From: a virus
Taxonomy: Duplodnaviria; Heunggongvirae; Uroviricota; Caudoviricetes
Length of the DNA: 30,453 nt
Reading direction: 5' to 3' (one strand)
Virus record (IMG/VR): IMGVR_UViG_2563366799_000004
Coordinates: 1-30,453 of that record
How positions within the stretch are numbered: the stretch's first letter is position 1; each line of letters starts with the position of its first letter. The position numbers were made by a program, and so were the translations under genes. This document shows positions 6,221 to 30,453 of the stretch, one piece after another. A model generated the notes under the pieces. The model made no database searches. It had not been told where the DNA came from and saw only the letters and a list, made by a program, of their open reading frames with translations.

Positions 6221-6272
6221 CAGCGTGCCGGGGCTTCGCTTATTCATTTTCAGAAGAAACAGGAGTGACAGC

Positions 6273-6989: not shown

Positions 6990-7138
6990 ATGGCTTTGCG
7001 GGAGTGCTGAAAATCAGTGCAAAATTTCGCGCAAAACCGCACAAATTTTATGATGGTGATTTTTCAGGAGCAGACCAGACGGGGCGGGCCTTCCGCTGGT
7101 CTGCACATTTGCACAAAAAAGCGGGGTTTCTGCGTGCG

Positions 7139-7157
7139 GGCGAGGCGGGGGAATGAG
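7139..7157. other. Putative cos (cohesive end) site
   Basis: GGCGAGGCGGGGGAATGAG closely resembles the P2 19-nt cohesive end GGCGAGGCGGGGAAAGCAC; lies between the A-side locus and portal gene as in P2. Confidence 0.5.
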
Positions 7158-7251
7158 CGCGCGCTGAGGGGTGGGATAGGGTCGGTATTATCTGCGCCGA
7201 TTTTCGCGCCGCTGCGCCTCGCTGCTGCGTCGTTTTCGGTTCGCCGTGGTG

Positions 7252-7297
7252 GGTTGAGGAAAAAGAAAAGCCCCTGCCAGCAGGCTGCTGAGGGGCT
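7252..7297 (-). terminator. Rho-independent terminator downstream of portal gene Q
   Basis: Hairpin AAGCCCCT...AGGGGCTT with inner CAGCAG/CTGCTG pairing, followed on the minus strand by TTTTCTTTTTCC. Confidence 0.6.
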
Positions 7298-7367
7298 TAC
7301 GTGCGGTGTGGTCAGTTATGGCCGTGTAGGACTTTGCGCGGTGGTGGTGGGTGTGTCCGGGCTGGCG

Positions 7368-8417: not shown

Positions 8418-10130
8418 TTAAAACTCCTCCACAAAACTGCCGTTATCGCCGGTCACTTCCGCGCCGATCGGTTCGTTGTAAATGCCCTGCATAGTTGCCC
8501 ATGCCAGATCGCCGTGATTGCTGCCACGGGCCCGATCGGACTGGTAGGTAATAACGCCGCCTGCGGTGACTTTACGCACGGTCATAAACGACTGTGCGAG
8601 ATCCATCATTCCGGCGTCGAACTCAAAGCGCCCGGCACGAATGACCATCAACATTTTGAGCACCATCGACCGCTTAAGAACCGGTGAATAGTTGTATTTA
8701 ACCGCCTGCGGGAAGAACTTGATCACCAGTTGATAAACCGCATCGCCGATCCCTGTGCCGTCGATAGCAATGTGCTGCACGTTGTAGCGGGTGGTGATCT
8801 CTTTAATAAATTTGGCCTGCTCTTCGTACTCCATGCCGCGTAACTGGTGGCGTTCTACCGCGCGGAACTTGCCACCCGGCACGGCTGGCGGGGCCAGCAC
8901 AACCAGCCCGGCGCTGTCGCCTTTGCCGCTGCTGCCGTTGGGGTCATAGCTAACCCAGACAGGGCGATTACCCAGCGGGCGAGGTGCAAACGGGTTCCAG
9001 TCCGGCCACGCGTCCGGCATGTAGCCATCAACGCCGCAGCCCAAAATTGTGTTGTAGTCGAAGGCGCGTTCCCCTGCTTTAACGAAGGTACATCCGTACA
9101 GGTTGGCGTATTCGTCAAGGGAGTTTTCGCTACGGATTTCATCAATATCAACCAGATCGAAACCGAGCTTCATGGCGTCTTCCAGCGTGACTATCTGGCG
9201 CCAGATGTTATCCCCGCATAGCTTGCCGTTTTTCAGTGCCTTATAACTGGTGTCGATATCCACCCGATCGGATCGGCGGCGGCTTTCATTGAACTGATCG
9301 CCAGTCCAGAAGGGATAGGCTTCATGTTCTTCACTGGAAGGCGTCGAAAAGTAGGTGCGGCGCAGTCCTTTTTGTGTCGCCATGCCTGCGGCCACCGAGC
9401 GCAGTTTGATGAAATTACTGATCCAGAAGGCTTCATCAAGGTACAGATCGCCGGTGTAGCTCTGGGCCGTCGCGGCGGAGGTGCCGAGAAAATACAGGAT
9501 CGCACCGTTGCTTAACTCAATGGCATCACCGCCCTTAAGTTCTACTCCTATTTCCCTTGCCAGCTTCTGAATGAACCGCTTGAACTGGAACGCTTGGGCG
9601 CGGCTGGCTGACAGGAATATCTGATTATTTCCGGTTTCCAGCGCACGCAACAGCGCTTCGCGGGCAAAGTACCAGGTGGCACCAATCTGGCGCGATTTGA
9701 GGATAAAGCGGTTACGCCGGTTCCACTGTTTGAACCAGCGTTTTTGATGCTCGTATAGCGAATCAAAGATCAGGGCGCGAAGCTGAGTTATCTGTTCTTC
9801 GGTGAAATGGTTTTTCGGGGTCTTCGCCTTCTTCTCTTTCTCCTGGTCGCGTCGCTCATGCCGTTCAAAGCGGTCAAGCTGGCGCGCCAGCAGGTCAATT
9901 TCTTTAAAGTCCTTCGGGGTTTTGTCGTCCTTTTCCACTAGGCGCAGGTAACGAACGTGCGTGCGATCCTGCACCCGCTGCATGGGGGTAGCTTTATCCC
10001 ATTCATAGCGGCGGCGCCAACTGTAGATCGTGTTAATGCTCACCCCGATTTCCTTAGAAATCTGAGTGATGCTAAACGCCTGCCAGTAGAGGCTTTTGGC
10101 TTTTGTGCTGAGGTCTTCGGCTGTATTCAT
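8418..10130 (-). CDS. P: Terminase ATPase (large) subunit, P2 gpP-like
   Basis: 570 aa; region ILKSRQIGATWYFAREALL (Walker A-like) and strong similarity to P2 P throughout. Confidence 0.9.
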   Translation of the reverse strand: MNTAEDLSTKAKSLYWQAFSITQISKEIGVSINTIYSWRRRYEWDKATPMQRVQDRTHVRYLRLVEKDDKTPKDFKEIDLLARQLDRFERHERRDQEKEKKAKTPKNHFTEEQITQLRALIFDSLYEHQKRWFKQWNRRNRFILKSRQIGATWYFAREALLRALETGNNQIFLSASRAQAFQFKRFIQKLAREIGVELKGGDAIELSNGAILYFLGTSAATAQSYTGDLYLDEAFWISNFIKLRSVAAGMATQKGLRRTYFSTPSSEEHEAYPFWTGDQFNESRRRSDRVDIDTSYKALKNGKLCGDNIWRQIVTLEDAMKLGFDLVDIDEIRSENSLDEYANLYGCTFVKAGERAFDYNTILGCGVDGYMPDAWPDWNPFAPRPLGNRPVWVSYDPNGSSGKGDSAGLVVLAPPAVPGGKFRAVERHQLRGMEYEEQAKFIKEITTRYNVQHIAIDGTGIGDAVYQLVIKFFPQAVKYNYSPVLKRSMVLKMLMVIRAGRFEFDAGMMDLAQSFMTVRKVTAGGVITYQSDRARGSNHGDLAWATMQGIYNEPIGAEVTGDNGSFVEEF

Positions 10131-10143
10131 GGCAACAGGCTAT

Positions 10144-10231
10144 CGCGCTCGCGCGCGCAACAATATCGCCGCTGGTTGTCGCCTGAGTCCGACAAAGTGA
10201 AGGCTTTGCGCCTTCCGGCCGCAAAGGGAAT
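10144..10231. promoter_or_regulatory. Late promoter region between P and O: TTGT-N12-ACAA dyad (10176..10195), (GC)n tract (10150..10158), second dyad CTTTGCG-N9-CGCAAAG (10204..10226)
   Basis: The TGT-N12-ACA dyad is the known Ogr/Delta-dependent late promoter element of P2-like phages; it sits between divergent P and O. Confidence 0.55.
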
Positions 10232-13107: not shown

Positions 13108-13209
13108 CCGAACGTGCCCCCGCGCACCCAGGCGGCACGGCAGGCGAAAACAGGCAACGCCGCGTCTTCGTCCTGCCGTCCACCGCCTGACTTATACGGA
13201 GTAGAGATC

Positions 13210-13698
13210 ATGAGTCTGGTAGCCACTGAGCCAGTACGGCCACCATCCGATCCAGTGCCTGATGATGGCGGCGCGAAGGTTGAAAGCCTGCCATTCTGGC
13301 CGGTCATTTCGCTGGCTGAACTACGCCGCGCGATGCGTCTTGATGGGCAGGTGACAACCGATCGCCTGATGTCGCGAACGGTGGAAGCGGTGGCCCATGT
13401 TAATGATCAGCTTTTCCTGTGGCGCCAGGTGCAGATTGATGCGGGCTATGAGTCATTGGCAGAAATTCCGGCCAGTCCGGTGAATGGCACTTCCGTGAAG
13501 GTATGGCGCTATAAAAACGCCGTGTATTCACTCACTAAGGCGCTGTTGATTGAAGGCTACCGCGATATTGACACCACCAGTAAAGGCGAAGACCACGCGG
13601 CGGCATTGAGCACGCAGATCGATACGCTGTGGCGGGATGTGCGCTGGTCAATCCGTGATATCCAGGACGAAAGCCGGGGCCTGGCGGAGTTGGTGTAA
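13210..13698 (+). CDS. L: Head completion/stabilisation protein, P2 gpL-like
   Basis: Start at ATG 13210 (SD GGAGTAGAG); the track start 13114 adds an implausible basic extension. Confidence 0.8.
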   Translation: MSLVATEPVRPPSDPVPDDGGAKVESLPFWPVISLAELRRAMRLDGQVTTDRLMSRTVEAVAHVNDQLFLWRQVQIDAGYESLAEIPASPVNGTSVKVWRYKNAVYSLTKALLIEGYRDIDTTSKGEDHAAALSTQIDTLWRDVRWSIRDIQDESRGLAELV

Positions 13699-16513: not shown

Positions 16514-16560
16514 TTGTCACCAACCCGCCACAAGGGCGCCGCGTTGTTTGCGCGCGCGCG
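16514..16560 (+). promoter_or_regulatory. Late promoter element upstream of V: TTGT-N12-ACAA followed by GCGTTGTTTG(CG)5
   Basis: Perfect TTGT-N12-ACAA dyad (16514..16533) and alternating CG tract (16551..16560), ~110 bp upstream of V. Confidence 0.6.
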
Positions 16561-16670: not shown

Positions 16671-17300
16671 ATGAATTTAAACGAACTCTATCGCCTTATC
16701 TGCAATCTCGCCCGCATTGGCACCGTGCTGGAAGTGGATACGGAAAAGTATCTTGCACGCGTCGAAACCGGCGAGAACAAAACCGACTGGATCCGCTGGG
16801 CAGTGCCGCGCGCCGGTGAAGCCGTGACGTGGTGGGCGCCGACAGTGGGCGAACAGGTTTATATTTTGTGCCCCTGCGGTGAGATGGAGACGGCATTCAT
16901 TGCCGGAAGCCTTTACAGCGAAGACGCACCGCCGCCAGATGCTGGCGCTACCACCTGCGTGATCCTGCACCCGGATGGCGCCCGTATTTCATATGACCCG
17001 GAGGCCAGCGCGCTGGTTGTCAGCGGGGTAAAAACGGCAAGCGTCACCGCGTCGGAATCCATTACCGCCACCGTGCCGGTGGTAACGGTCAAGGCAGATA
17101 CGCGCGTTACCCTGGACACGCCGGAAGTGGTCTGCACCAACAAGCTGATCACCGCCACGCTGGAAGTGCAAAAGGGCGGGGAAATGAAGGGCAATATTAC
17201 CCATTCAGGCGGATCGCTTTCGTCTAATGGTGTCGTTGTCCATTCTCACAAACATAGCGGCGTCCAGTACGGTGGTAGTAATACAGGTGGCCCGGTATGA
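16671..17300 (+). CDS. V: Baseplate assembly / spike protein V
   Basis: 209 aa; gpV-like N-terminal domain; first gene of the V-W-J-I-H-G block. Confidence 0.85.
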   Translation: MNLNELYRLICNLARIGTVLEVDTEKYLARVETGENKTDWIRWAVPRAGEAVTWWAPTVGEQVYILCPCGEMETAFIAGSLYSEDAPPPDAGATTCVILHPDGARISYDPEASALVVSGVKTASVTASESITATVPVVTVKADTRVTLDTPEVVCTNKLITATLEVQKGGEMKGNITHSGGSLSSNGVVVHSHKHSGVQYGGSNTGGPV

Positions 17301-17659
17301 GTACAGTCCGTTACAGCGGCATGAATGCCAGTTCAGGCCATGCCATCACCGACAACGAGCATATAGCGCAGTCTATCGGCGATATTCTGTTAACGCCGAT
17401 CGGTTCCCGTGTAATGCGCCGCGCTTACGGTTCGCAGCTTTTCAACCTGATAGATCAGCCGGTCGATAACGCCATAACGAAGCTGCGCGTTATGTCTGCC
17501 ATCTACAGCGCCCTGTATTTATGGGAACCGCGGATCTCTCTGACCAGTATCACCCTGAGCGCGCCGGGTGCCGGTCGGCTGGTTGCCACTATCCAGGCCA
17601 ATCGCACCGACAATCAGACGCCATTTAACGCTGATATTACATTGAGGGGCCAGGCATGA
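17297..17659 (+). CDS. W: Baseplate wedge protein W (GPW/gp25 family)
   Basis: 120 aa; overlaps V stop; conserved position. Confidence 0.85.
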   Translation: MSTVRYSGMNASSGHAITDNEHIAQSIGDILLTPIGSRVMRRAYGSQLFNLIDQPVDNAITKLRVMSAIYSALYLWEPRISLTSITLSAPGAGRLVATIQANRTDNQTPFNADITLRGQA

Positions 17660-18567
17660 GCGGCACGATCGATTTATCGCAGCTACCGCCGCCCGTGGTG
17701 GTTGAACCGCTGGACTTCGAAACGCTTTTCGCGCAGCGCAAGGCGGCATTTATTGCGATGTACCCGGAAGACGAGCAGGAAGAGATCGCCCGCACGCTTG
17801 AGCTTGAATCGGAGCCGATCACCATGCTGCTGGAAGAGAATTGCTATCGCGAATTGCTGTTGCGCCAGCGGGTGAATGAAGCAGCCCGCGCGGTGATGCT
17901 GGCTTATTCCACGGATAGCGATCTGGATAATCTGGCGGTCAATTTCAACGTTGAACGTCTGACCATTCAGGAAGAAGACGACAGCGTTACACCGCCAATT
18001 GAAGCCGTGATGGAGTCAGACCCAGATTTACGCACGCGTACCCAGCAGGCTTTTGAAGGTCTGAGCGTGGCCGGGCCAACTGCGGCGTATGAATTTTGGG
18101 GGCGTTCAGCAGACGGGCGCGTAGCTGATATTTCGGCGGTGAGTCCTACGCCTGCCTGCGTCACCATTTCGGTGCTGTCGCGCGAAGGTGACGGAACGGC
18201 CAGCGATGATCTGCTTTCCGTGGTCGCTGCTGCCCTGAACGATGAAGAAGTGCGCCCGGTGGCCGACAGGGTAACGGTGCAGTCTGCGGAGATCGTGCCG
18301 TATCAGATTGATGCAACGCTTTACATCTATCCGGGGCCGGAAGCTGAACCCGTCCGGCAGGCATCGGAACAGCAGTTACAGGCGTATATTGCCGCGCAGA
18401 ATCGCTTAGGGCGCGATATCCGTCTTTCAGCTATCTACGCCGCCCTGCACGTCGAAGGCGTCCAGCGCGTGGAACTGGCGCAGCCTGTTGCGGATATTGT
18501 GCTGAGTGACTACCAGGCATCGCACTGCACCGAATACACCATAACGGTGGGTGGTTACGATGAGTAA
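17656..18567 (+). CDS. J: Baseplate protein J
   Basis: 303 aa; overlaps W stop; gpJ-like. Confidence 0.85.
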   Translation: MSGTIDLSQLPPPVVVEPLDFETLFAQRKAAFIAMYPEDEQEEIARTLELESEPITMLLEENCYRELLLRQRVNEAARAVMLAYSTDSDLDNLAVNFNVERLTIQEEDDSVTPPIEAVMESDPDLRTRTQQAFEGLSVAGPTAAYEFWGRSADGRVADISAVSPTPACVTISVLSREGDGTASDDLLSVVAAALNDEEVRPVADRVTVQSAEIVPYQIDATLYIYPGPEAEPVRQASEQQLQAYIAAQNRLGRDIRLSAIYAALHVEGVQRVELAQPVADIVLSDYQASHCTEYTITVGGYDE

Positions 18568-19174
18568 TGACCTGTTACCACCCAGCGCCAGCCGAATGGA
18601 GCGCGTCGCCGCGCGCGTCTGTGCGTCGTTGGGTGAAGTGCCCGTGCCGCTGCGCCAGTTGTGGAACCCGTGGACGTGTCGGGCTGATCTGTTGCCCTAT
18701 CTGGCGTGGGCCTTCTCCGTTGATCGCTGGGATGAGGCCTGGCCGATAAACACAAAACGAAAGGCGGTGGCCGATGCGTTTTACCTGCATAAGTACAAGG
18801 GTACAACGGGCGCCATGCGCCGGGTTGTGGAGCCGTTCGGCTTCTTCATCCGGGTTAACGAGTGGTGGAACATCGACACCGCACCGGGCACCTTCACGCT
18901 GGATATTGGCGTGGAAGACCAGGGCATTAGTGAAGAAACCTATCAGGAACTTGAACGCCTGATCGCCGATGTGAAGCCGTGCAGCCGTCATATGCTGGGA
19001 ATGTCTCTTCACCTGCAAACAACCGGCGATCTGTATATCGGCGCGGGCAGTTATTCCGGCGATACGCTAACCGTGTACCCGTATTTTCCTGAAACCATAG
19101 CCGTGGGCGGTGATGATTACACCGGGGCGGCAATCCATTTAATTGACACCGTGGAGATCGCAAGTGGCGACTAA
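18560..19174 (+). CDS. I: Baseplate/tail protein I
   Basis: ATG 18560 overlapping J stop (track start 18551 is GTG); gpI-like. Confidence 0.8.
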   Translation: MSNDLLPPSASRMERVAARVCASLGEVPVPLRQLWNPWTCRADLLPYLAWAFSVDRWDEAWPINTKRKAVADAFYLHKYKGTTGAMRRVVEPFGFFIRVNEWWNIDTAPGTFTLDIGVEDQGISEETYQELERLIADVKPCSRHMLGMSLHLQTTGDLYIGAGSYSGDTLTVYPYFPETIAVGGDDYTGAAIHLIDTVEIASGD

Positions 19175-20456
19175 ATATTATGCCGTGCTAACCAATGTGG
19201 GCGCGGCGAAACTGGCAAATGCCACGGCATTGGGTGCGCAGGTTGAAATCACCCAGATGGCTGTAGGCGATGGTAACGGCGTGTTGCCGACGCCGAACCC
19301 GGCACAAACGGCGCTGGTTCATGAGCTGCGCCGCAAGCCGCTTAATAGTCTGAGCATTGACCCGAATAACGCCAACCAGATTATTGCCGAGCAGGTGATA
19401 CCTGAAGACGAGGGCGGGTGGTGGATCCGTGAAATCGGTTTATTCGATAAAGACGGCGATATGATTGCCGTAGCCAACTGTGCGGAAACGTATAAGCCGC
19501 AGTTACAGGAGGGAAGCGGGCGCGTACAGGTTGTACGCATGATCCTGATTGTCAGCAGCACCGCTGCCGTAACGCTGAAAATTGACCCTTCGGTAGTTCT
19601 GGCAACCCGACAGTATGTTGATGATCAGATCATCCAGGTGAAAAGCTATGTTGATCAGAAAATGGCAGCGCATGTAGCTGCGGCTGATCCGCATAAACAA
19701 TACGCACCAAAAGAAAGTCCCGCTCTTACTGGCAGGCCGACTGCGCCAACGGCGGAAGGCAAAGATAGTTCTACTCAAATTGCAAATACAGCTTTCGTTC
19801 AGGCTGCTATTGCTGCTTTGGTTGGCTCTTCGCCTGAAGCGCTGGATACGCTGAATGAACTTGCTGCGGCTTTGGGTAATGATCCTAACTTTGCTACCAC
19901 CGTAACAAATTCACTCGCTGGAAAGATGGATAAATCGGCAAATGGTTCAGACATAGAAAACGTTTCTGTTTTTCTACAAAACCTTCGTTTGGGAGCAGGC
20001 GCACCAGCTATCGGTATTCCGTTCTTCTGGCCGTCCTCGGCGATGCCCAATACGGTAATGACTGAATGGGCTGATATGGTGTTTCTGAAGTTCAACGGAG
20101 CCACATTCTCAGCGTCGAATTATCCAAAACTCGCTCTGGTGTTTCCTGCATTAACACTGCCTGAATCACGGGGTGAATTTCTTCGTATCTGGGATGACGG
20201 GCGCGGAGTTGATGCAGGCCGCGGCCTGTTAAGCGCTCAGGGTTATGCCTATCAAAGCCACTCGCACCGATTGCTCATGAGCGCAGGTAGCGCAGGGAGC
20301 GGCAATGTTATTGGTATTGATGGTAGTTTAAATGGAACGCTCACTTACAACATTAACCAACCAGGCGGCGGGCAAATTCAGGCGATTGAAAATGCAGGCG
20401 GCACCGAAACACGCCCACGTAACATTGCATTCAACTTTTTAGTAAGGGCTAAATAA
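19164..20456 (+). CDS. H: Tail fibre protein H (short variant, ~430 aa)
   Basis: N-terminus (KYYAVLTNVGAAKLANA...MAVGDGNG) matches the conserved P2 H baseplate-attachment region; start set at GTG 19164 with GGAG SD; C-terminal half divergent. Confidence 0.8.
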   Translation: MATKYYAVLTNVGAAKLANATALGAQVEITQMAVGDGNGVLPTPNPAQTALVHELRRKPLNSLSIDPNNANQIIAEQVIPEDEGGWWIREIGLFDKDGDMIAVANCAETYKPQLQEGSGRVQVVRMILIVSSTAAVTLKIDPSVVLATRQYVDDQIIQVKSYVDQKMAAHVAAADPHKQYAPKESPALTGRPTAPTAEGKDSSTQIANTAFVQAAIAALVGSSPEALDTLNELAAALGNDPNFATTVTNSLAGKMDKSANGSDIENVSVFLQNLRLGAGAPAIGIPFFWPSSAMPNTVMTEWADMVFLKFNGATFSASNYPKLALVFPALTLPESRGEFLRIWDDGRGVDAGRGLLSAQGYAYQSHSHRLLMSAGSAGSGNVIGIDGSLNGTLTYNINQPGGGQIQAIENAGGTETRPRNIAFNFLVRAK

Positions 20457-21049
20457 TGAAACCTGTTTTCGATGAAAATGGACTGGCAACAGAACCGGGT
20501 GAAATCCGGTGCTATTACTACGACGCGGTGACGTTTGAATACATGGGATGGTCTGACGAATATATTAATACTGGCGTAAGTATGCCCGCCTGTTCCACTG
20601 GTATTGATCCTGGCGAAAACATTCCGGGAAGAGTGGCAGTATTTACAGGTAAGGGATGGAGCCATGAAGAAGACCATCGCAATGAGACTGTTTACTCAAT
20701 CGAAAATGGCGCAGCTGTTACAGTGGATTATATCGGTGCCATCAAAGACGGTTATGTCACGATTTCACCGTTAACGCCATACGATAAATGGGATGGTGAG
20801 AAATGGGTGACAGACACTGAGGCACAACACAGTGCCGCAGTAGACGCGGCAGAAGCACAGCGCCAGTCACTGATTGATGCAGCAATGGCTTCCATTAGTC
20901 TGATTCAGCTGAAATTACAGGCCGGGCGGAAACTGACGCAGGCAGAAACAACCCGACTTAACATTGTGCTGGATTACATTGACGCGGTGACGGCAACAGA
21001 TACCAGCACCGCGCCTGATGTCATCTGGCCTGAACTGCCGGAGGCGTAG
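20456..21049 (+). CDS. G: Tail fibre assembly chaperone G (Tfa family)
   Basis: 197 aa; ATG overlaps H stop (TAATG); C-terminus ...DTSTAPDVIWPELPEA is the Tfa signature. Confidence 0.85.
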   Translation: MKPVFDENGLATEPGEIRCYYYDAVTFEYMGWSDEYINTGVSMPACSTGIDPGENIPGRVAVFTGKGWSHEEDHRNETVYSIENGAAVTVDYIGAIKDGYVTISPLTPYDKWDGEKWVTDTEAQHSAAVDAAEAQRQSLIDAAMASISLIQLKLQAGRKLTQAETTRLNIVLDYIDAVTATDTSTAPDVIWPELPEA

Positions 21050-21260
21050 GCCATTCAATATCGGGTGCTGTTGACGTATCAACACGCATCAGCAGCACAC
21101 GGTATTTCTTCCATTGGGTGAGAGTTGAAGTTTCTTCATCAGTTGCGATACCAGCATCAACAGCATCCTGTCGCCAGGATATTTCAGCATCTGCTTTTGC
21201 ACGAAGGGTGGCTTTCATGTTTGCAGCGTCGGATTTTTGTTGTTCTGGCGTTCGCGGTGG
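21021..21260 (-). pseudogene. Truncated tail fibre assembly (Tfa) C-terminal fragment, convergent with G
   Basis: Minus-strand frame ends ...YRVLLMRVDTSTAPDIEWPTPP, the Tfa C-terminal signature; N-terminal half absent; the first ~30 codons of track ORF 21021..21347 read through the repeat element and are not Tfa-like. Confidence 0.65.
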
Positions 21261-21313
21261 TTCATCAACCCCAGCGACCAGAGATAAGAATTCCGGCACG
21301 CATGGCCGGTTAT

Positions 21314-21385
21314 AACCGTGCTGGCCGTGTGTATCGAGTACGATCACTTTTAACGGTGCTGTAGCACGGTCAGTTATGGTGGTGT
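21314..21385 (+). repeat. ~70-bp repeat element, copy B (partner at 14791..14862)
   Basis: AACCGTGCTGGCCGTG(T/C)GTATCGAG... shared with copy A; nested stem ACCGTGCT/AGCACGGT. Confidence 0.7.
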
Positions 21386-21400
21386 ATTACGGAAGACGAA

Positions 21401-21423
21401 GCGGGCAATGGCCCGCTTTTCTT
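21401..21423 (+). terminator. Rho-independent terminator between G and U
   Basis: GCGGGC-caat-GGCCCGC hairpin followed by TTTTCTT on the plus strand; abuts the U stop codon. Confidence 0.6.
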
Positions 21424-21871
21424 ATATCGAAAGGTTGGTTTTCACCAGAGAGAAGAGATCGTCGGTGGTGGTTTCAGCCAGCTTTTCCCGTATGTCCTCG
21501 CTTACCCGTTTCAGGTTGAGCGTGAAATCAATTTTCTTTGCCTTCCCGTCCTTAAAAAACTCCGTCCGGTTTTGCGTGATCTGCTCAATTACATACATGC
21601 CGTAGATCCTGCCCGTGCCTTCTATCAGGGGCCACGGGCGCCCGGAAAAAGCCATAGTTTCCAGCATGACAAGCGACACATCACCGCCGCTTATTTCGGG
21701 GTACAGCGTGCCGCTGAGTACGAACGGTTCTTCATCTGCGCCGATGAACTGATAGCGCGGGGATTTCCCCACGCGATCGTTTTTGACGTGCCGCCAGGAG
21801 TTGGTTTTATTCGCACTCTGGTAAGGTGTGGTTTGCAGTGAAAAGGGGAACATCCCCAGAATCATCATCAT
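21422..21871 (-). CDS. U: Tail protein U
   Basis: 149 aa; immediately downstream of T on the minus strand, as U follows T in P2. Confidence 0.8.
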   Translation of the reverse strand: MMMILGMFPFSLQTTPYQSANKTNSWRHVKNDRVGKSPRYQFIGADEEPFVLSGTLYPEISGGDVSLVMLETMAFSGRPWPLIEGTGRIYGMYVIEQITQNRTEFFKDGKAKKIDFTLNLKRVSEDIREKLAETTTDDLFSLVKTNLSI

Positions 21872-21880
21872 GATATTGCC

Positions 21881-24826
21881 TTAGACGTGATCGGTCAGTT
21901 GGGAGCGCTTGCGCCGGTCGGCCTGTTGCTTCGCTAACGCAAGTTCTTCGCGCACGCGCCTGATAATGGTTTCTTCATCCAGTTTCTGGCCGCTAAAGTC
22001 GAAGTTAAGGTTATATACATCGCCACCCGGAGCAGGCATCAGCGCAGCGACGGAAGCCGCAGACGGAGACGCCGAAACAGGCATCCGTGCGGCGGGCTTC
22101 TCAACCTGCCAAGGCGTAACGGAAGCGATCAGCGATCCGGCCTGCTGCGTCACCCAATCGGTAAGGGATGGTAGCTGGCGCTGCGCCTGCTTAAGCGGTT
22201 CCGAATATCCGCCACGGATCGGGATATAGGGCTGCTTATTCTTGAAGACAATTTCGCCGGGGCCGTCTTTCTTCTCCGTGGTATTGGTGGCGATCTTGTC
22301 CAGGCTGTTGCTCATCTTCGGCACGATGTTGGCCGGGCCTTTGAGCGAGTTAATTAAGCTTTCCTGCTTTTTCTGCTGGTCAATGGCCTGCTGTTGCTTC
22401 TGGTTGGTTTTCTTCTGCTGATCGTCTTTCGGCGACCAGTTCCAACCCTTTTTAACCATTTTCTTTTGCTGCGGATCCCACTCCCAGACAACAGGGTCTT
22501 TGTGCATACTTTCCGCAGCTTGCTGCGCTGCTTTTGTTGCGTCGGGGATGGCGCCGAGTTTCTCAAGTATCCATCCAATCCCGTTAGCGACGGCTTGAAT
22601 AGGTAGCGTCAGCGCGCTAATTGCGGCCCCTACAACCTTGCCGAACGTTTCCCCGGCACTGGTGCAGGATGCCAGCGCTTCACTGGAAAACTGGATCGGT
22701 TCCAGCAGTTTGGTAAACCATTCCCAGACCCCACTGATCGCGTTGCCGATACTGTCAAAAATCGGGGCCAGTGGTGCAAATACGGCGTTAAATGCCTGCG
22801 TGATTGGTTGAAGGCCAGTCATCAGGCCGGTAAAGAAGCCGCTGAAAAACGCCTGTATGGGTTGCCAGAATTTAATGACGGCCACTGCTGCCGCAGCAAA
22901 GAGCGCAATCAGCCCCCAGACGGGCGCAGAAATACCAGCCAGTAGAGTAATAAGCGGGCCGAATACCATGCGACCGGCGCTTAATAATGCCTGCATAGGC
23001 GAGCCAGCAAGCCACTGGAACGCACCACCAAGGCGCATTACTCCGCCAGTCAGCCGCGCTATTCCTCCTTCCCCGGCCAGCGTGGTGAAGCTGAGGCGAA
23101 CAAGTGCCATCGGGCCCAGCACTGCGCCGATGGACAGCATCAGGCCACCCACGACAACCAGCAACGCGCCTATGGCTGCGGTGACTTTCATGATTGAACC
23201 AACCAGCGCCGGGTTTGCCTCAACCCAACGCCGGACGCTGCCAACCACCTTACTGACGGTAAGCATGATATCCATCAGCGGTTCGCGGAGCGTTTCCCCT
23301 GCTGAACTGAATGCGTTAACCGCGCCGGTTTTGGTCAGTTGCCACTGAGCAGAAAGGGAGTCTTTATTGATATCGGATTCCCGATTCATGGAACCTTTAG
23401 CGGCAGCACCCTGCGTCAGTTCGATCTGGCGCCGAAGTTCGGGCAGGTTGTTCGCAAGTTTCTGTGCATCATCCCCGAACTCTTTACCGAAAATCTGGGT
23501 AAGGTTGGCTACCTGCTTATCTGGTGCAAGTTTTTTGGACGCTTCCAGCACTGAAATGATCGTGCCCATCGCGTCCACTGACATGCTTTTCTGGACTTTC
23601 TCAGCATTGACGCCGATCTCATCCAGAGCACCCAAAAATTTATCGCTTTGTACTGTGGCGATCGACAGTTCACGCACCATTGCATTGGTGGCGCTGGCTG
23701 CAACTTCGGCAGGTGATCCAAGCGTCAGAAAGGTGGAGCCCAGCGCGGCGGCTTGCTTGTAATCCAGTTGGCTGGCAAGCCCGCCAACGCGCTGGAGCAC
23801 GTCGATAATATCGGAGCCTTTCGACTTCGCGTTATCGTCCAGGTAGTTTATGGCGTCGCCCAACTGTTCAATATTCTGGGTAGGGATTTTATACAGCCCG
23901 GCAATCTTACCGAGACTTTCAGAAAGCTGATCGGCGGGCAGTTCAAAGGCTACCGAAGCCTTTGCCGCCATGCTGGCAAAAGCCAGCAGATCGGCTTTTT
24001 GCTTTTGCCACGGATCATTGCTGTTTGCGACGCCCATACGCGCGCCACCTTCGACCAGTGCGGCATAGTCAACAGCACCGTTTGCCATTGGCAGCTTTTC
24101 GCTGGCATCCATGATCGCCCGCTGCATTTCTTCATATTGCGGGGTGCGGTTGCCGCTGTCGTCACGCAAGCCGTTTACCTGTTTGGCTACGCCCTTCATT
24201 GCGTCTTCAAGGCTGCTGTAGGATTTAACCGCAGCGGCGACAGGTGCTAGGGTTGCCGCCCCTACTGCGGCGGTTTTCATCCCCCCGCTCATCATCTTTT
24301 CGCCGGTTTCTTTGGCGCGGCTGTAACGGGCCTGCGCCTGGTTAACAGCGTCAAGCCGTCGCTGCTGTTCGGCAAGCTGGCGGTTGTATTGCGCGGTGCG
24401 CTGGTTGATCTGTTCCGTCGCCCGGCTGGCGCTGCTGATCGCAATGCCTTCGCTGTAGAAGCTGGCCCGCAACTGGTTAAGCTGTGTCTGCTCGCCTTTC
24501 TGCTGCTGGGTTAACTGGCGAATGGCTGCACGTTGCTGATTGAGGGCGGCAACCTGTTCGGCGCTGCGCTGGCGTAACGGGCCATAGGCCGCCGCCATTT
24601 GCCGGGCCTGTTCTTTCGCCTGGGCCAGTTGTTCGGTGGTTTTTTTATTGGCTGCGGTGAGGCGGTCAAAGCTGGTTGCCTGACGCTCAAGCCCTTTAAT
24701 GCTGGTTTTAGTCTGGTTGATTTGAGACGCCAACGCGGCGGCACTCTGGCGCGCCGCGTTGACAGGGCGGGACATATTATTCAGGGCGCTGAATGCCACC
24801 CTGATATTTAAATTGCGGTCTGCCAT
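21881..24826 (-). CDS. T: Tail tape measure protein T
   Basis: 981 aa; Ala/Gln-rich coiled-coil N-terminal part, Gly/Ala-rich hydrophobic central segments; follows E/E'. Confidence 0.9.
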   Translation of the reverse strand: MADRNLNIRVAFSALNNMSRPVNAARQSAAALASQINQTKTSIKGLERQATSFDRLTAANKKTTEQLAQAKEQARQMAAAYGPLRQRSAEQVAALNQQRAAIRQLTQQQKGEQTQLNQLRASFYSEGIAISSASRATEQINQRTAQYNRQLAEQQRRLDAVNQAQARYSRAKETGEKMMSGGMKTAAVGAATLAPVAAAVKSYSSLEDAMKGVAKQVNGLRDDSGNRTPQYEEMQRAIMDASEKLPMANGAVDYAALVEGGARMGVANSNDPWQKQKADLLAFASMAAKASVAFELPADQLSESLGKIAGLYKIPTQNIEQLGDAINYLDDNAKSKGSDIIDVLQRVGGLASQLDYKQAAALGSTFLTLGSPAEVAASATNAMVRELSIATVQSDKFLGALDEIGVNAEKVQKSMSVDAMGTIISVLEASKKLAPDKQVANLTQIFGKEFGDDAQKLANNLPELRRQIELTQGAAAKGSMNRESDINKDSLSAQWQLTKTGAVNAFSSAGETLREPLMDIMLTVSKVVGSVRRWVEANPALVGSIMKVTAAIGALLVVVGGLMLSIGAVLGPMALVRLSFTTLAGEGGIARLTGGVMRLGGAFQWLAGSPMQALLSAGRMVFGPLITLLAGISAPVWGLIALFAAAAVAVIKFWQPIQAFFSGFFTGLMTGLQPITQAFNAVFAPLAPIFDSIGNAISGVWEWFTKLLEPIQFSSEALASCTSAGETFGKVVGAAISALTLPIQAVANGIGWILEKLGAIPDATKAAQQAAESMHKDPVVWEWDPQQKKMVKKGWNWSPKDDQQKKTNQKQQQAIDQQKKQESLINSLKGPANIVPKMSNSLDKIATNTTEKKDGPGEIVFKNKQPYIPIRGGYSEPLKQAQRQLPSLTDWVTQQAGSLIASVTPWQVEKPAARMPVSASPSAASVAALMPAPGGDVYNLNFDFSGQKLDEETIIRRVREELALAKQQADRRKRSQLTDHV

Positions 24827-25287
24827 TTAGTGATCTCCACCACTGCGCGCAGCCGCCTGATCACGCCATAACAGTATTTCCTGTACCGTCATGGCGTCCA
24901 TCTCTACCGGCCGCCAGTGGAATATGACGGCGATATCTGCCATCAGGTCTTCTATGCGTTCGCAGGGGCATCGGATGATTCGTTGCCCGTATCCGTCGCG
25001 GTCAGATCCGAAGAGGGTTGCAAAAAATCAACCACCGCGTTGGCTAGCTGGCAAAAATCCCAGGTATCCATACGGGCAATCTCATCGGCGGTTAGTGCCG
25101 GAGCGGTAACGCGGGGCAGCAGAATAACCAGCGCGTCATAGTTGGAAGTCAGCACGTCATAGGCTTTTAAGCCGCGCAGTGATCCAGCCTGTTTAAGCAC
25201 GGAAGTGATCGCCACTTCGGTGATTTTGGTCTTACCGCGCGTAATAGGGGCGGTAAGAATAACGGTGTTTTCTTTGGTCTTGCTCAT
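24827..25287 (-). CDS. E: Tail assembly chaperone E and its -1 frameshift product E+E' (slippery site T TTT TTG at plus coords 25021..25027)
   Basis: Zero-frame E = 24952..25287 (111 aa). Minus strand reads GAT TTT TTG at 25029..25021; hand translation of the -1 frame after it gives an open extension (...IAVIFHWRPVEMDAMTVQEILLWRDQAAARSGGDH) ending at a TAA that abuts the T start (TAAATG). Confidence 0.75.
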
Positions 25288-25301
25288 GGTGCCGGGTTTC
25301 C

Positions 25302-25817
25302 TTATAGGCCGATGTTAGCGCGGTGTTTTTCCAGCACATCCACACCGGCAACTTTGTAGATCATGTTGAGCACATCAACTTCGATAATCTCTTCGCCGTT
25401 GATGGTCAGCTTGTAATAGGTGTTTTTCAGGGTGTACTTATGCGAAGTGTCATCCCCGACTTTTGCCGAACCGGGATCCAGTTCAGTGAAGCGGCCACGC
25501 GTCTGGATTTCGCACGGTACAGCGTCGCCGGTTGCGTCGTCCTGATAGGAGCCAGCAAAACGTGTTTGCATCCCGTCCGCAGTGGTAACGCCCCATTTTT
25601 TCAGCAATCCGGCATCCAGACCGCCAAGCGTGATATCCATATCCAGGGCGCCAGCGTCGAAGCCAAGATCCACCGCAACCGAACCCGGCATACCACCCGC
25701 CTGGTAGTCTTCGGTTTTTTTTGTGAGTTTGGCGGGGGTGATTTCCGGCACCATGCCGAAGTAGTTATCCCCGTCAAAGAACATATTGAAATATTTGAGT
25801 TTCTTAGGCAGTGCCAT
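25302..25817 (-). CDS. FII: Tail tube protein FII
   Basis: 171 aa; follows the sheath gene; P2 FII-like. Confidence 0.85.
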   Translation of the reverse strand: MALPKKLKYFNMFFDGDNYFGMVPEITPAKLTKKTEDYQAGGMPGSVAVDLGFDAGALDMDITLGGLDAGLLKKWGVTTADGMQTRFAGSYQDDATGDAVPCEIQTRGRFTELDPGSAKVGDDTSHKYTLKNTYYKLTINGEEIIEVDVLNMIYKVAGVDVLEKHRANIGL

Positions 25818-25829
25818 AAGCGCCCCCGG

Positions 25830-27023
25830 TTAGTTATTCACTGCGCTGGAAAACGTAGCGAAATATTCGTCGGTGAACTCCTGTACCAGGCTGAGATTTT
25901 CCAGCGGTGGAACAGGGGTGTAGTTGTACTTAATGGTCAGTTGACCATTGCGCAGGGTTTCCGAGGTATTCGGTTCCGGGTCATACCAGCAGTGGGCGCC
26001 CAGCAGCTTGCCAGCCGTCACATATGAGGTCAGCTTCTTATTGATGCCGTCCACAATGTCCTTAACCAGCGACGGGGTAAGCGGTTTATCAACATAGGCG
26101 AAATGGGCTTCGGCGACGGTATCCGCAACGATCTGCGCGGTTCGGGTATAGCTTTCGAAGATATACGTTTCCGCGTCGCAGGTACGCGATCCCCAGATGC
26201 GGTAGCCGTCCTGCTTGATCAGCGTGGTAACGCCTGCTGCGTTCAGTTCGTCGGCGTCGGTATCGGTGCCCTGCAACGTGAAATAGATATCCCGATCCAT
26301 CCCCAGCACGTTATTAACGGGCACGTTGGAAATGGTTTTATGCCAGCCCTGCGTTGCGTCGATTTTGGCTCGCATCCCAACAGCATGGGCACCCACGGGC
26401 ACGGTGGCATTAGCCCCGGCGTTGGTGTCGTAGCAGATGAAATTAGGCCAGATAACCATCATTTCACGCTGGGAGAATTGCTCGCGGTATTCCTTCACTT
26501 CGGCGATTGTGTTGCAACCGTTCGCTGCCACGTAAGCAAACGCGCGCAGCTTTTCGGCAATGACGCCGAGTTGTGCGGCTACCGCTTCCGTATCAAGCCC
26601 TGGAACAGCCAGTACACGCGGGCGCACACCTACGCGCATTTCGGCAGACAGCAGCGCGTACATGCCGGTAAAGCGCCCGTTTGCATCGGTGCCGCCAATA
26701 ACCAGTTGATCCTGGGTCTGTGCGGTGCCGCCTTCTGGCGGTTCGATATTTGCAGCATCAGCAACGCGGATCACAATGGTTTGCGGGCTGGTCTGGTCTG
26801 AAATCGCTTTCAGGGTGGTAAACAGGGTGCCGGTTTTACCTGCCTTGCCCAGCATGTTAGCCACGCGGGTAATCAGTACAGGGGTATCCAGCGGGAACGC
26901 TGTTTCGTCCGCATCATCAGCGGTGCAGACAACGCCGATCACCGCCGAATCAATGTCGGTGATCATCGTGCTAAGGTCGGTGGTTTCCGTGACGGTTACA
27001 CCGTGATGGTAGTTAGTGGCCAT
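25830..27023 (-). CDS. FI: Contractile tail sheath protein FI
   Basis: 397 aa; motifs LRAFAYVAANGC and YTPVPPLENL match P2 FI; SD GAGG before the ATG at 27023. Confidence 0.9.
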   Translation of the reverse strand: MATNYHHGVTVTETTDLSTMITDIDSAVIGVVCTADDADETAFPLDTPVLITRVANMLGKAGKTGTLFTTLKAISDQTSPQTIVIRVADAANIEPPEGGTAQTQDQLVIGGTDANGRFTGMYALLSAEMRVGVRPRVLAVPGLDTEAVAAQLGVIAEKLRAFAYVAANGCNTIAEVKEYREQFSQREMMVIWPNFICYDTNAGANATVPVGAHAVGMRAKIDATQGWHKTISNVPVNNVLGMDRDIYFTLQGTDTDADELNAAGVTTLIKQDGYRIWGSRTCDAETYIFESYTRTAQIVADTVAEAHFAYVDKPLTPSLVKDIVDGINKKLTSYVTAGKLLGAHCWYDPEPNTSETLRNGQLTIKYNYTPVPPLENLSLVQEFTDEYFATFSSAVNN

Positions 27024-27094
27024 GTATTTGCCTCGCCAGTTTAATGACTGCGAATATCATTGCGGCAATGGCGGGCCGATGCGATGGATAAGGG

Positions 27095-27143
27095 TTGTCA
27101 GCAACCTGCAACAATGACGGGGCGTTGTTCATGCGCGCGCGCG
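27095..27143. promoter_or_regulatory. Late promoter element centred between divergent FI and D: TTGT-N12-ACAA followed by GCGTTGTTCAT(GC)5
   Basis: Perfect dyad 27095..27114 centred at 27104.5; intergenic midpoint 27102; alternating GC tract 27133..27143 on the D-proximal side. Confidence 0.6.
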
Positions 27144-27180
27144 TGGCGACGATGTACCCCATCATGATGAAGGGGTTGAT

Positions 27181-28299
27181 ATGGACACGACAGAAAACCG
27201 ATATTCGCCGCGCCCGGCGTTCAGTATTGAGATTGAAGGTAAGCAGCTTACGGCGCTGGATAACCGGCTGATCTCCCTTTCCCTGACAGATAACCGGGGC
27301 TTTGAAGCGGACACGCTGGATCTGACTCTGGATGATGCAGACGGGCAGGTAGCCTTACCATCACGCGGCGCAAAGATATCGGTGGCGCTGGGCTGGGATA
27401 ATGATCCATTGGTTTTTAAGGGAGTGTATACGGTTGACGAGATCGGACACTCTGGCCCGCCTGACCAGCTAACGATCAGTGCCAGAAGCGCAGATTTCCG
27501 CGATACCTTTAACGTGAAGAGGGAATATAGCTGGCACGATATTACCGTGGGGGATGTGGTTGCCAGCATTGCCAGCCGTTACGATCTGCGTGCGGGCGTC
27601 AGCGAAGAACTGGCGAAGATTGAGATAGATCACGCCGATCAGACGAGTGAATCAGATATCAGCTTCTTAACGCGCATGGCCGAAATGCTGGGCGCGGTGG
27701 CAACCATTAAAAACGGTATGCTTCTGTTTATCACGCCGGGCAAGGGAGTAACGCAGAGCGGCAAGCCGCTGCCGGTGATCGAGATAGTCCGGTCAAGCGG
27801 TGATAAACATCGGTTTAACGTAGCTGACCGCGACGCGTACACGGGCGTAACTGCATACTGGCTTGATCTCAACTTTGGCAAGAAACCATCCACTACCGTG
27901 AAGAAAACCACCCGCAGGCGACGAACCAGCCAGGCCAAAAAGAAAGAACCCGCATCAAGCAAAAAAGAAGGGGATTATCTGGCCGGGGCCGAAGGCAACG
28001 TTTTTGTTATCCGTAAAACCTTCAAGACGGAAAAGGCGGCGAAGCGGGCCGCTGCGGCTAAGTGGCGGGAGTTGCAGCGTGGAGCGGCGACGTTCAGCAT
28101 CACCCTGGCGCGTGGCCGCGCGGATTTGTACCCGGAACAGCCCGCCAGCGTCTACGGCTTTAAGTCCACGATCGACAGTGGGAACTGGACGATAACGCGG
28201 TGCGTTCACGATATTGGCGGGGGAGGGTTTACCACATCGCTGGAACTGGAAGTAAAAATCGACGACTGGACAGCGGAGAGTGACGATTCAACGTCTTAA
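27181..28299 (+). CDS. D: Tail protein D (late control gene D family)
   Basis: 372 aa; P2 gpD-like N- and C-terminal regions with a basic low-complexity insert (KKTTRRRRTSQAKKKEP); SD AAGGGG. Confidence 0.85.
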   Translation: MDTTENRYSPRPAFSIEIEGKQLTALDNRLISLSLTDNRGFEADTLDLTLDDADGQVALPSRGAKISVALGWDNDPLVFKGVYTVDEIGHSGPPDQLTISARSADFRDTFNVKREYSWHDITVGDVVASIASRYDLRAGVSEELAKIEIDHADQTSESDISFLTRMAEMLGAVATIKNGMLLFITPGKGVTQSGKPLPVIEIVRSSGDKHRFNVADRDAYTGVTAYWLDLNFGKKPSTTVKKTTRRRRTSQAKKKEPASSKKEGDYLAGAEGNVFVIRKTFKTEKAAKRAAAAKWRELQRGAATFSITLARGRADLYPEQPASVYGFKSTIDSGNWTITRCVHDIGGGGFTTSLELEVKIDDWTAESDDSTS

Positions 28300-28347
28300 G
28301 CGTTATACTTGCGTTGATATTAACCAGTCCTGAAAGGAGGCCCGCGT

Positions 28348-28590
28348 ATGGCAATGCGCTGTCCTCGCTGCCGTGCAATAGCAAAAACCAGAACCAGCGT
28401 TGAGCTGAGTTTGCTTGTACGGCGCAGCTATCACCAGTGTCAAAATATGTTGTGCGGGTACTGTTTCACCAGCATGACGGAAATAGACGGTTCACTAAAT
28501 CAGACCCAGCCAGCGCCCGGCGCGATGGTGCCACAAGAAGCTTTTCCACGAAGTCACCACGGCGAAGATCAGTTATCGCTGGCATTATAA
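28348..28590 (+). CDS. ogr: Late gene transcriptional activator, Ogr/Delta zinc-finger family
   Basis: 80 aa; CPRC...HQCQNMLCGYC zinc-finger pattern as in P2 Ogr; located after D. Confidence 0.8.
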   Translation: MAMRCPRCRAIAKTRTSVELSLLVRRSYHQCQNMLCGYCFTSMTEIDGSLNQTQPAPGAMVPQEAFPRSHHGEDQLSLAL

Positions 28591-28592
28591 AA

Positions 28593-28625
28593 GCGGCCCC
28601 TAAATGGGGCCGTTATTTATTTCAT
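28593..28625. terminator. Bidirectional rho-independent terminator shared by ogr (+) and the convergent gene 28617..29264 (-)
   Basis: GCGGCCCC-taaat-GGGGCCGT hairpin; T-rich on the plus side (TATTTATTT) and on the minus side (TTTTATAAT). Confidence 0.6.
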
Positions 28626-29264
28626 GTTTATGGCTACAAACCTTGATCGTGTAAGGTTTTCACTTAAATATTGATCGCCACTATCCCCGGCCTTTTTGCC
28701 CCAGATATCACACGAAGATTCACCGCCCTGAAAAACGTAGCCTTTGGTTAAAATGTCGTTAGTCACATAAATATGATCGAATAAACCAGCCTTCCAAGCC
28801 CTGTTAGATTCCCCGTGATTGAAATAGCTGATGCATACGGACTGAACGGCACTTTTCGCCTGTAGTTCTTCTATGCTGTCAAAATTGAATGCAACTACTA
28901 AGGCTTTGTTGTAAATGACTGGTTTAACTGTGAGATTCAGATCTCCGAGCGCCTTGGATAAGGCAAGGGGAAGTTGATTAGTCGCTTCTGAAAAGTCGAT
29001 AGTGGTTGTTAATTGTTCTTTGGGTTTAGCCGCGGGTTGTGTTTGTTCTGTGTTTGTCACTGCTGGCTGGGGTTTATTTTCAGCAACAGCTTTCGGCGCG
29101 ACTGGTGCAACCATTGAACCTATGATTGCTGCCAAGAGGCACACCCCGAAGTAGATAGCAGATGAGCGCTTTCGATTTGGCATAAAAACCCATTTGGGAT
29201 TGATTAGCCCAACCCAAAAAGCGATCCCAGCAACAGCGGCGATAACGGTGATGATTGTTTCCAT
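28617..29264 (-). CDS. Hypothetical membrane-anchored protein (two N-terminal TM helices, Pro/Thr/Gln-rich linker, ~130-aa C-terminal domain); AT-rich cargo gene
   Basis: 215-aa ORF; visibly lower GC than both the prophage and fieF; not recognisable as CpxP or any phage structural protein. Confidence 0.6.
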   Translation of the reverse strand: METIITVIAAVAGIAFWVGLINPKWVFMPNRKRSSAIYFGVCLLAAIIGSMVAPVAPKAVAENKPQPAVTNTEQTQPAAKPKEQLTTTIDFSEATNQLPLALSKALGDLNLTVKPVIYNKALVVAFNFDSIEELQAKSAVQSVCISYFNHGESNRAWKAGLFDHIYVTNDILTKGYVFQGGESSCDIWGKKAGDSGDQYLSENLTRSRFVAINMK

Positions 29265-29469: not shown

Positions 29470-29550
29470 ATCCTCAATTTGCCTGCTGCTTAATGCATTG
29501 CAGATGATTTGCTTCCGTTATACTAGCGTCAGTTGATAGCGGGAGTATTT

Positions 29551-30453
29551 ATGAATCAATCTTATGGACGGCTGGTCAGTCGGGCGGCGATGGCTGCGAC
29601 GGCGATGGCTTCGTTGCTATTGCTGATTAAAATTTTTGCATGGTGGTATACCGGGTCGGTGAGTATTCTCGCCGCGCTGGTGGATTCGCTGGTGGATATC
29701 GGCGCGTCGTTGACGAATTTACTGGTGGTGCGATATTCCCTGCAACCTGCCGACGATAATCACTCGTTTGGTCACGGTAAAGCTGAGTCCCTCGCGGCGC
29801 TGGCGCAAAGTATGTTTATCTCCGGTTCGGCACTATTCCTGTTTTTGACGGGTATTCAACATCTGGTATCTCCAACACCGATGACAGATCCAGGCGTCGG
29901 GGTTATCGTGACAATTGTGGCGCTAATTTGTACGATTATCCTTGTCTCGTTTCAGCGGTGGGTGGTGCGCCGGACGCAAAGCCAGGCGGTGCGGGCTGAT
30001 ATGCTACATTACCAGTCTGATGTTATGATGAACGGCGCAATTCTGCTGGCGCTGGGGTTGTCCTGGTACGGCTGGCATCGCGCCGATGCTCTGTTTGCAT
30101 TGGGAATCGGCATCTATATTTTATATAGCGCGTTACGCATGGGATATGAGGCGGTACAGTCATTACTGGATCGCGCATTGCCTGATGAGGAACGGCAAGA
30201 AATTATTGATATCGTGACTTCCTGGCCGGGTGTTAGCGGCGCTCACGATCTTCGCACGCGGCAGTCAGGGCCGACCCGCTTTATTCAGATTCATTTGGAA
30301 ATGGAAGACTCTCTGCCTTTGGTTCAGGCACATATGGTGGCGGATCAGGTAGAGCAGGCTATTTTACGGCGTTTTCCGGGATCGGATGTAATTATCCATC
30401 AGGACCCCTGTTCCGTCGTACCCAGGGAGGGTAAACGGTCTATGCTTTCATAA
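29551..30453 (+). CDS. fieF: Cation-diffusion-facilitator family Fe(II)/Zn(II) efflux transporter FieF (YiiP); host gene
   Basis: Starts [13 protein letters not shown]..., TM-rich N-terminal domain with HSFGHGKAE and cytoplasmic C-terminal domain; ATG 29551 with GGGAG SD (track start 29533 is TTG). Confidence 0.9.

Follow-up and report, generated by a model that had tools for sequence, protein, structure and literature searches.

The reversed FI-to-U tail operon of an Escherichia coli P2-like prophage is the standard gene order of its clade and most likely shares one Ogr site with gene D

The DNA analysed here (the window) comprises the 30,453 nucleotides of IMG/VR record IMGVR_UViG_2563366799_000004 and, judged by its sequence, is an E. 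coli prophage of the known SEN4/SEN5 type (Peduoviridae, Senquatrovirus-like) lying beside fieF. Its tail genes FI, FII, E, E', T and U are read from the strand opposite to the baseplate and tail-fibre genes V to G and to the hub gene D with the activator gene ogr. This inverted order is the standard in a clade classified by the International Committee on Taxonomy of Viruses (ICTV) that includes the genera Senquatrovirus, Xuanwuvirus, Reginaelenavirus and Reipivirus. Very probably, the window as a whole is explained by a SEN4/SEN5-type prophage with the normal order of its clade, by a single ancestral inversion and by a shared Ogr site that is most likely bidirectional. The gene order itself is the standard of the group; what may be new is limited to the spacer between FI and D as a fifth, shared late promoter and to a CGCGCGCG block as the hallmark of part of the clade's promoters.

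Genes were called from a program-made list of open reading frames (ORFs) together with Pfam scans, and all coordinates are those of the whole window. The tail region has the following layout.

16671-21049, plus strand: V-W-J-I-H-G baseplate/tail-fibre operon (ORFs; Pfam matches for H and G; tblastn to relatives)
21422-21871, minus strand: gpU tail protein, last in the inverted operon (PF06995 Phage_P2_GpU, 4.7e-39)
21881-24826, minus strand: gpT tape measure (PF10145 PhageMin_Tail, 4.1e-21)
24827-24943, minus strand: E', frameshift extension of E (38-aa ORF; 'GpE family phage tail protein' in relatives)
24952-25287, minus strand: gpE tail assembly chaperone (PF10109 Phage_TAC_7, 7.9e-5, under the Pfam cut-off)
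25302-25817, minus strand: gpFII tail tube (PF04985 Phage_tube, 3.4e-61)
25830-27023, minus strand: gpFI tail sheath, first in the inverted operon (PF04984, PF17482, PF22671)
27181-28299, plus strand: gpD baseplate hub ('late control D'), separated from the F operon (PF05954 Phage_GPD, 7.3e-19)
28348-28590, plus strand: ogr-type zinc-finger late activator (PF04606 Ogr_Delta, 1.5e-13)

The V to G operon runs convergently towards the inverted FI to U block, and FI and D are divergent across a spacer of 157 bp (27024-27180). The contractile-tail module of the Peduoviridae is complete, with Pfam matches for FI, FII, E (weak), T, U, D and ogr and an ORF for E'; the call of gpE is backed by its position and by 97-100% identity to E of close relatives. 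Identities of the window proteins to those of P2 range between 48 and 57%. ORFs and Pfam matches confirm what an earlier note on this DNA had stated, namely that FI to U occupy the minus strand and V to G and D-ogr the plus strand, with a 157-bp gap between FI and D. The contrast with P2 drawn in that note is also real, as the P2 record annotates FI-FII-E-E'-T-U-D as a single operon on the V to G strand. The canonical P2 layout, in which D directly follows U on the same strand and the block is co-oriented with V to G, is not found in the window.

To place this arrangement, loci in retrieved sequences were scored for their strand relations by tblastn; the arrangement and its distribution are direct observations. 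The layout with V to G on one strand, U-T-E'-E-FII-FI on the opposite strand and D, along with ogr in records that mark it, again on the first is annotated in SEN5, in the Klebsiella phages 3LV2017 (Reginaelenavirus) and ST16-OXA48phi5.4 (Reipivirus) and in Escherichia phage P88 and Citrobacter phage Shae_phiSM (Xuanwuvirus), and it occurs on the two E. coli chromosomes 2020N21-246 and KMi029. By similarity of D, 49 phage records fall into the group (4 with D at least 99% identical, 45 with D 60-80% identical). All 80 IMG/VR loci with D 65-100% identical were inverted. Species representatives of GTDB divided in the same way, the 56 loci with D at least 59% identical all being inverted and the 24 with D at most 58% identical all canonical; the 56 inverted loci come from about 30 genera of Enterobacterales and one Aeromonas metagenome-assembled genome (MAG). 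In the neighbourhoods of P2-type and Ralstonia RSY1-type D proteins, 139 of 141 further scoreable loci were canonical, with P88 and phiSM as the only inverted ones, and no independent inversion elsewhere in the Peduoviridae was found among these loci. Combined, 144 of 144 loci with D identity of at least 59% are inverted (the window and 143 others), and 163 of 163 loci with a more distant D are canonical. The unusualness implied by the earlier note is thereby lost: the strand arrangement is the standard organisation of well-described, ICTV-classified phages (SEN4/5; P88, P884B11 and phiSM; 3LV2017; ST16-OXA48phi5.4). The comparison that it had proposed, with P2, 186, PSP3, Fels-2 and Wphi, finds all five canonical, as are ENT90 and RSY1, and for this reason these five phages are the wrong reference set for the clade.

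The inverted layout is functional, because SEN4/5 form myovirus particles (PMC5261728) and P88 and phiSM are active temperate phages (PMC6456863). Outside the Enterobacterales it was seen in the Aeromonas MAG JBOFMA010000066.1. Contig NZ_JBQPOM010000071.1, labelled 'Vagococcus sp. WN89Y', carries an enterobacterial-type prophage of the clade with inverted order and 63% identity in D; its label, which denotes a Firmicute, probably reflects contamination or mislabelling. Two records contain annotation slips. The SEN5 RefSeq record places the ogr note on a 120-nt minus-strand ORF (13155-13274) and leaves the true ogr unannotated, and the Shae_phiSM record (7605-10056) names the sheath 'late control gene D protein' and D 'ogr'.

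Phylogenetic trees of single proteins were built by simple neighbour joining and rooted on one outgroup, RSY1. The trees of D, FI and FII each unite the inverted loci in one clade, with the window inside and no canonical tip within; this monophyly is observed directly. Since the inverted loci are monophyletic in all three trees, one old inversion fixed in the ancestor of the clade is the simplest reading of the sequences. The inverted unit would have comprised the sheath promoter P_F together with FI-FII-E/E'-T-U, flipped once and then fixed, with one breakpoint just upstream of the P_F activator site and the other at the tightly coupled U/D junction. In canonical phages the gap between U and D measures -4 to +8 nt and the two genes are translationally coupled, and the sequence beyond the P_F dyad is variable, being in some cases the terminator of the V operon and in others cargo or an invertase gene end. 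After the inversion, D and ogr would have stayed on their original strand, the V to G and FI to U operons would converge on a shared hairpin terminator, and the palindromic Ogr dyad of P_F would lie midway between FI and D. From the other side of this dyad a second core promoter, P_D, of the clade's P_P/P_V type, would face D.

Several observations weigh against this history. The trees of U, a short protein, and of J, a mosaic protein, fail to recover the inverted clade, so that what defines 'clade' here is the tail-tube/hub module rather than the whole genome. The phylogeny rests on simple neighbour-joining trees with a single outgroup, and the proposed history does not account for the approximately 60-nt P_D core. 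The failure of the U and J trees fits mosaicism or the shortness of a protein. The composition profile of the window, in which skew tracks the coding strand, is uninformative on the age of the inversion.

The ungrouped inverted loci in the U and J trees could also reflect several independent inversions at a fragile U/D junction, P2-like phages being mosaic and other late-operon rearrangements existing, for example in Smp131 (PMC3931495). We regard such a history as very unlikely, given the clean split by D identity (at least 59% versus at most 58%), the monophyly of D, FI and FII, the P_D core common throughout the clade and the absence of inversion from all 163 loci outside it. With the order inverted throughout the clade and nowhere outside, the earlier note's proposal of an ancestral inversion or a distinct P2-like lineage stands; the event did not happen in this genome and is not recent. 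An even smaller chance is given to programmed inversion, in which a Gin/Hin-type invertase would flip the FI to U block in the manner of tail-fibre segments and the window would show one of two states. An invertase gene does lie directly beside the U end in relatives, and the neighbouring G/G'-H' fibre segment has opposite orientations in 2020N21-246 and KMi029, but it is this fibre segment that the invertase serves. The FI to U block has the same orientation relative to D in all 144 clade loci including the window, a search for inverted-repeat crossover sites pairing the borders 21350-21421 and 27024-27180 found none, the invertase gene is deleted in the window, and a flipped block would lose its geometry relative to the dyad. 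An active invertase switch was therefore rejected for its missing flanking inverted repeats, the invariant orientation and the deleted invertase. An invertase-mediated origin of the inversion was considered because canonical relatives (Fels-2) have the invertase gene next to P_F and inverted ones have it next to U; it is speculation, as the gene has kept its own orientation and a pseudo-site could not be detected. Least probable of all, to a negligible degree, is an assembly artefact of the window, a concern voiced in the earlier note. The complete E. coli chromosome KMi029 matches the 7.8-kb tail region at 99.9% identity in one colinear piece through both junctions, the layout recurs in over 140 independent contigs as well as in phages that were isolated and sequenced, and nothing in the sequence comparisons favours an artefact. 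Within the reach of sequence comparison, the colinearity with KMi029 and the recurrence of both junctions in many other, independent assemblies rule out a misassembly.

In the inverted layout FI and D share one upstream region, whose elements are listed here with the other predicted transcription signals of the region.

27095-27114, no strand assigned: Ogr-type activator dyad TTGTCAGCAACCTGCAACAA (TGT-N12-ACA), the sole dyad in the 157-bp spacer
27046-27084, minus strand: predicted P_F core promoter with -10-like GATATT (reverse complement of 27053-27058), aligning with P2 P_F and 186 pJ
27124-27163, plus strand: predicted P_D core promoter with TTGTTC, an alternating GCGCGCGCGCG block (27133-27143) and -10-like GACGAT/GATGTA (27148-27156)
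28280-28309, plus strand: sigma-70-like promoter match upstream of ogr (consensus match only, 9/12)
21398-21419, no strand assigned: GC-rich hairpin resembling a two-way intrinsic terminator, between the convergent G/G' and U ends (terminator scan)
28592-28614, no strand assigned: two-way terminator hairpin after ogr (-19.8 and -16.5 kcal/mol)

Transcription dependent on Ogr, B or Delta requires the activator together with the alpha subunit of RNA polymerase. P2 transcribes its late genes from four promoters that depend on Ogr and contain a TGT-N12-ACA element (PMC3931495). Perfect TTGT-N12-ACAA dyads stand at exactly three late-promoter positions of the window, between P and O (10176-10195), upstream of V (16514-16533) and in the FI/D spacer (27095-27114). 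Measured from the centre of the last, the start codon of FI is 81.5 nt away and that of D 76.5 nt. In 142 of 142 inverted loci, the window included, the best dyad-like site is found 75.5-88.5 nt (mode 81.5-83.5) from the FI ATG; the distance to FI is 78.5-85.5 nt in canonical loci with a good dyad and 82.5 nt in P2. The FI distance being the same as in canonical phages, P_F moved along with the block. In the 186 record the transcription start site (TSS) of pJ is 49 nt beyond the activator site, and when this spacing is applied, starts are predicted near 27046 (minus strand, P_F) and near 27160-27163 (plus strand, P_D). The dyad thus has the position expected at Ogr/B/Delta-type promoters, about 55-58 nt upstream of a predicted start.

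On the D side, the 39 non-redundant spacers of the clade conserve a TTG-type hexamer, the CGCGCGCG block, a -10-like element, a Shine-Dalgarno sequence and the D ATG; conservation and spacing of these elements are observed directly. The same core, with CGCGCGCG at an invariant offset, recurs in P_P and P_V of the window and in P_P of 3LV2017. Being common to P_D, P_P and P_V, the core identifies the D-side element as belonging to the clade's own class of late promoters. The block sites, 20-27 nt past the Ogr dyad, are 27133-27143, 16550-16560 and about 10145-10155 in the window; in locus L004 they lie at about 32041-32049 and 13248-13256. CGCGCGCG is absent on the P_F and P_O sides and in the late promoters of P2 and 186. 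The spacer has the geometry of a bidirectional promoter, with a single dyad midway and conserved cores on both sides. Precedents exist in the P2 record, where one activator site (3057-3087) serves the divergent P_P and P_O with starts at 3016 and 3127, and in the 186 record, where one B-protein site (3798-3817) is annotated for 'activation of pV and p12'. By this conservation and analogy, one Ogr site most likely drives FI to U leftward and D-ogr rightward. The late transcription units of the window clade would number five, compared with four in P2, and read-through into ogr from P_D would replace the read-through from P_F in P2. From the conserved elements we infer the firing of P_D, its dependence on Ogr and its start sites. 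The balance tips slightly towards the clade having gained P_D as a fifth Ogr-dependent late promoter that shares the palindromic site of P_F, and towards CGCGCGCG in P_D, P_P and P_V marking a distinct sub-type of activator-dependent promoter. If true, the dosage of D would be uncoupled from the sheath operon and positive feedback on ogr would be kept. The rewired late transcription suggested by the earlier note is in this respect plausible.

Some features of the spacers do not favour a bidirectional promoter. The exact TGT-N12-ACA is missing in 27 of 108 distinct FI-D spacers, and the half-site score over the 8 positions TTGT/ACAA is at most 6 in 29 of 142 loci. The predicted -10 on the D side (GACGAT or GATGTA) is weak, the distance from the dyad to the first D ATG (39.5-88.5 nt) is looser than that on the FI side, and the case as a whole is made from sequence conservation and analogy. 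The P_F dyad of P2 itself is likewise imperfect, and the first in-frame D ATG is mostly 68-80 nt from the dyad centre. In several subclades (L004, L119, L124, L126-L128, L139, L140 and L143) the D frame opens about 18-35 codons earlier than in the window, right after the promoter core; D therefore has a variable N-terminal extension.

The looser distance on the D side would also be compatible with an Ogr-independent promoter for D-ogr, whether constitutive, early or middle, with the dyad serving P_F only and the late circuit not truly bidirectional. Such a promoter finds some footing in P2, whose ogr has its own sigma-70 promoter; the sigma-70-like match before the window ogr (28280-28309) sits where the P2 record annotates the -35 and -10 of that promoter, and on the D side itself a TTG-type -35 and a -10-like hexamer are spaced by 17 bp. 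We consider it possible but unlikely, because in its unusual architecture and its offset from an Ogr dyad the D-side core agrees with the P_P and P_V cores found in the same genomes, because it is kept across the clade and because the protein encoded by D is structural and late. The dyad centre is moreover separated from each predicted start by about 55-58 nt, as in P2 P_P/P_O and 186 p12/pV. As a separate observation, between the called start of the terminase gene P (10130) and the centre of the P/O dyad there are only about 55 nt; with a TSS at about -55 no room would remain for a leader, and the true start of P or the geometry may differ.

The predicted transcripts of the preferred, bidirectional arrangement would end at the two hairpins. 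That between the convergent operons (21398-21419) folds as RNA with -18.9 kcal/mol on the plus strand (z -4.15) and -15.7 kcal/mol on the minus strand (z -3.1), and by a crude test 51 of the 110 distinct clade sequences have a hairpin downstream of U. The FI to U transcript would stop there, at a terminator held in common with the convergent V to G operon, and the D-ogr transcript would stop at 28592-28614.

Next to the U end the window retains the remains of a tail-fibre switch.

21021-21347, minus strand: truncated second tail-fibre-assembly gene G' (Caudo_TAP match)
21270-21316: remnant of a deleted DNA-invertase gene, its final ~46 nt (from 21270 on the window again matches E. coli relatives, within the 3' end of their recombinase gene)

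The close E. coli relatives 2020N21-246 and KMi029 carry the full G'/H'/invertase switch at the same place. With the switch deleted, the fibre of the window is locked.

The host context agrees with a prophage of E. coli. An integrase gene is located at the left end of the window and fieF at the right end (29533-30453), the latter 99.3-99.6% identical to that of E. coli. At least 80% of the tail region is present in 30 of 5,426 complete E. coli genomes. Compared with the Salmonella phages SEN4/SEN5, the window shows an identity of about 94-95% across 85% of its length, and the D proteins are 99.5% identical. For SEN4 the first 25 kb gave 94.8% identity over 85%, from which the intergenomic similarity is roughly estimated at about 80%. 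By ICTV convention, members of a genus share a genome-wide nucleotide similarity of about 70% or more, and the rough estimate would be compatible with a place in Senquatrovirus. Between the ogr terminator and the end of the prophage lies an ORF of 215 aa (28617-29264, minus strand) that is kept in E. coli relatives (WP_016246766.1) and for which no match was found in SEN5; it probably represents cargo located at the end of the prophage. Two further ORFs (6210-6989 and 7017-7436, plus strand) lie between the replication gene A and the portal gene Q, the position of cargo of the P2 old/tin type. Pfam and PADLOC gave no match for any of the three.

In the open literature, papers on SEN4/5, P88, phiSM, Burkholderia P2-like phages and global P2-like diversity make no remark on the inversion, and no description of P_D as part of a bidirectional promoter or of the CGCGCGCG hallmark was found in searchable papers. 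For annotation, the gene order of P2, 186, PSP3, Fels-2 and Wphi is not representative of all P2-like phages. Convergent V to G and FI to U operons combined with divergent FI and D are what is to be expected in an enterobacterial clade of wide occurrence and give no cause for flagging a rearrangement or misassembly. The arrangement also offers a testable prediction, namely that the palindromic activator site of one promoter may have been co-opted after the inversion for a second, opposite promoter. If true, this co-option would show that late-gene circuits are rewired with little new sequence.

The closest known systems are SEN4/SEN5 and the fieF-adjacent E. coli prophages such as KMi029, with 94-99.9% nucleotide identity over most of the window. 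Order and strands of V to G, of U-T-E'-E-FII-FI and of D-ogr are identical to those of the window, as are the 157-bp FI/D spacer and its dyad. Differences from SEN4/SEN5-type relatives concern the mosaic tail-fibre H/G region, where SEN5 has a macro-domain gene, and the E. coli relatives retain the G'/H'/invertase switch that the window has lost. Members of Xuanwuvirus (P88, P884B11 and Citrobacter phiSM), Reginaelenavirus (3LV2017) and Reipivirus (ST16-OXA48phi5.4) possess the same inverted block, a conserved D-side core and a divergent FI/D spacer with the dyad about 80-85 nt from FI, which in ST16-OXA48phi5.4 is imperfect (half-site score 6/8). Identity in sheath and D amounts to only 55-63%, some of their D proteins are longer at the N-terminus, and cargo and fibre genes differ.

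The canonical F operon of P2, Wphi, 186, PSP3 and Fels-2 is built from homologous genes in the same internal order (FI-FII-E/E'-T-U), and it shares with the window the TGT-N12-ACA activator element about 82 nt upstream of FI and the position of ogr after D. There, FI to U and D form one unit on the V to G strand with U and D coupled, whereas in the window FI to U are reversed and D has an upstream region of its own. The Mu G, P1 C and Fels-2-type fibre segments have a counterpart in the relatives, with an invertase, beside the block, and the window keeps the G' remnant of it. Such switches flip the variable parts of H and G between crossover sites; the 5.7-kb FI to U block, in contrast, is without flanking repeats and has a single fixed orientation. 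The FI/D spacer itself resembles P2 P_P/P_O and 186 p12/pV, in which one activator site lies between outward late promoters with starts about 110 bp apart. The window spacer has the same geometry, with a P_P-type core containing the GC block on one side and a P_O/P_F-type core on the other. The promoter pairs of P2 and 186 serve head and packaging genes and have been studied experimentally, whereas the pair between FI and D is a predicted one and would serve genes of the tail.

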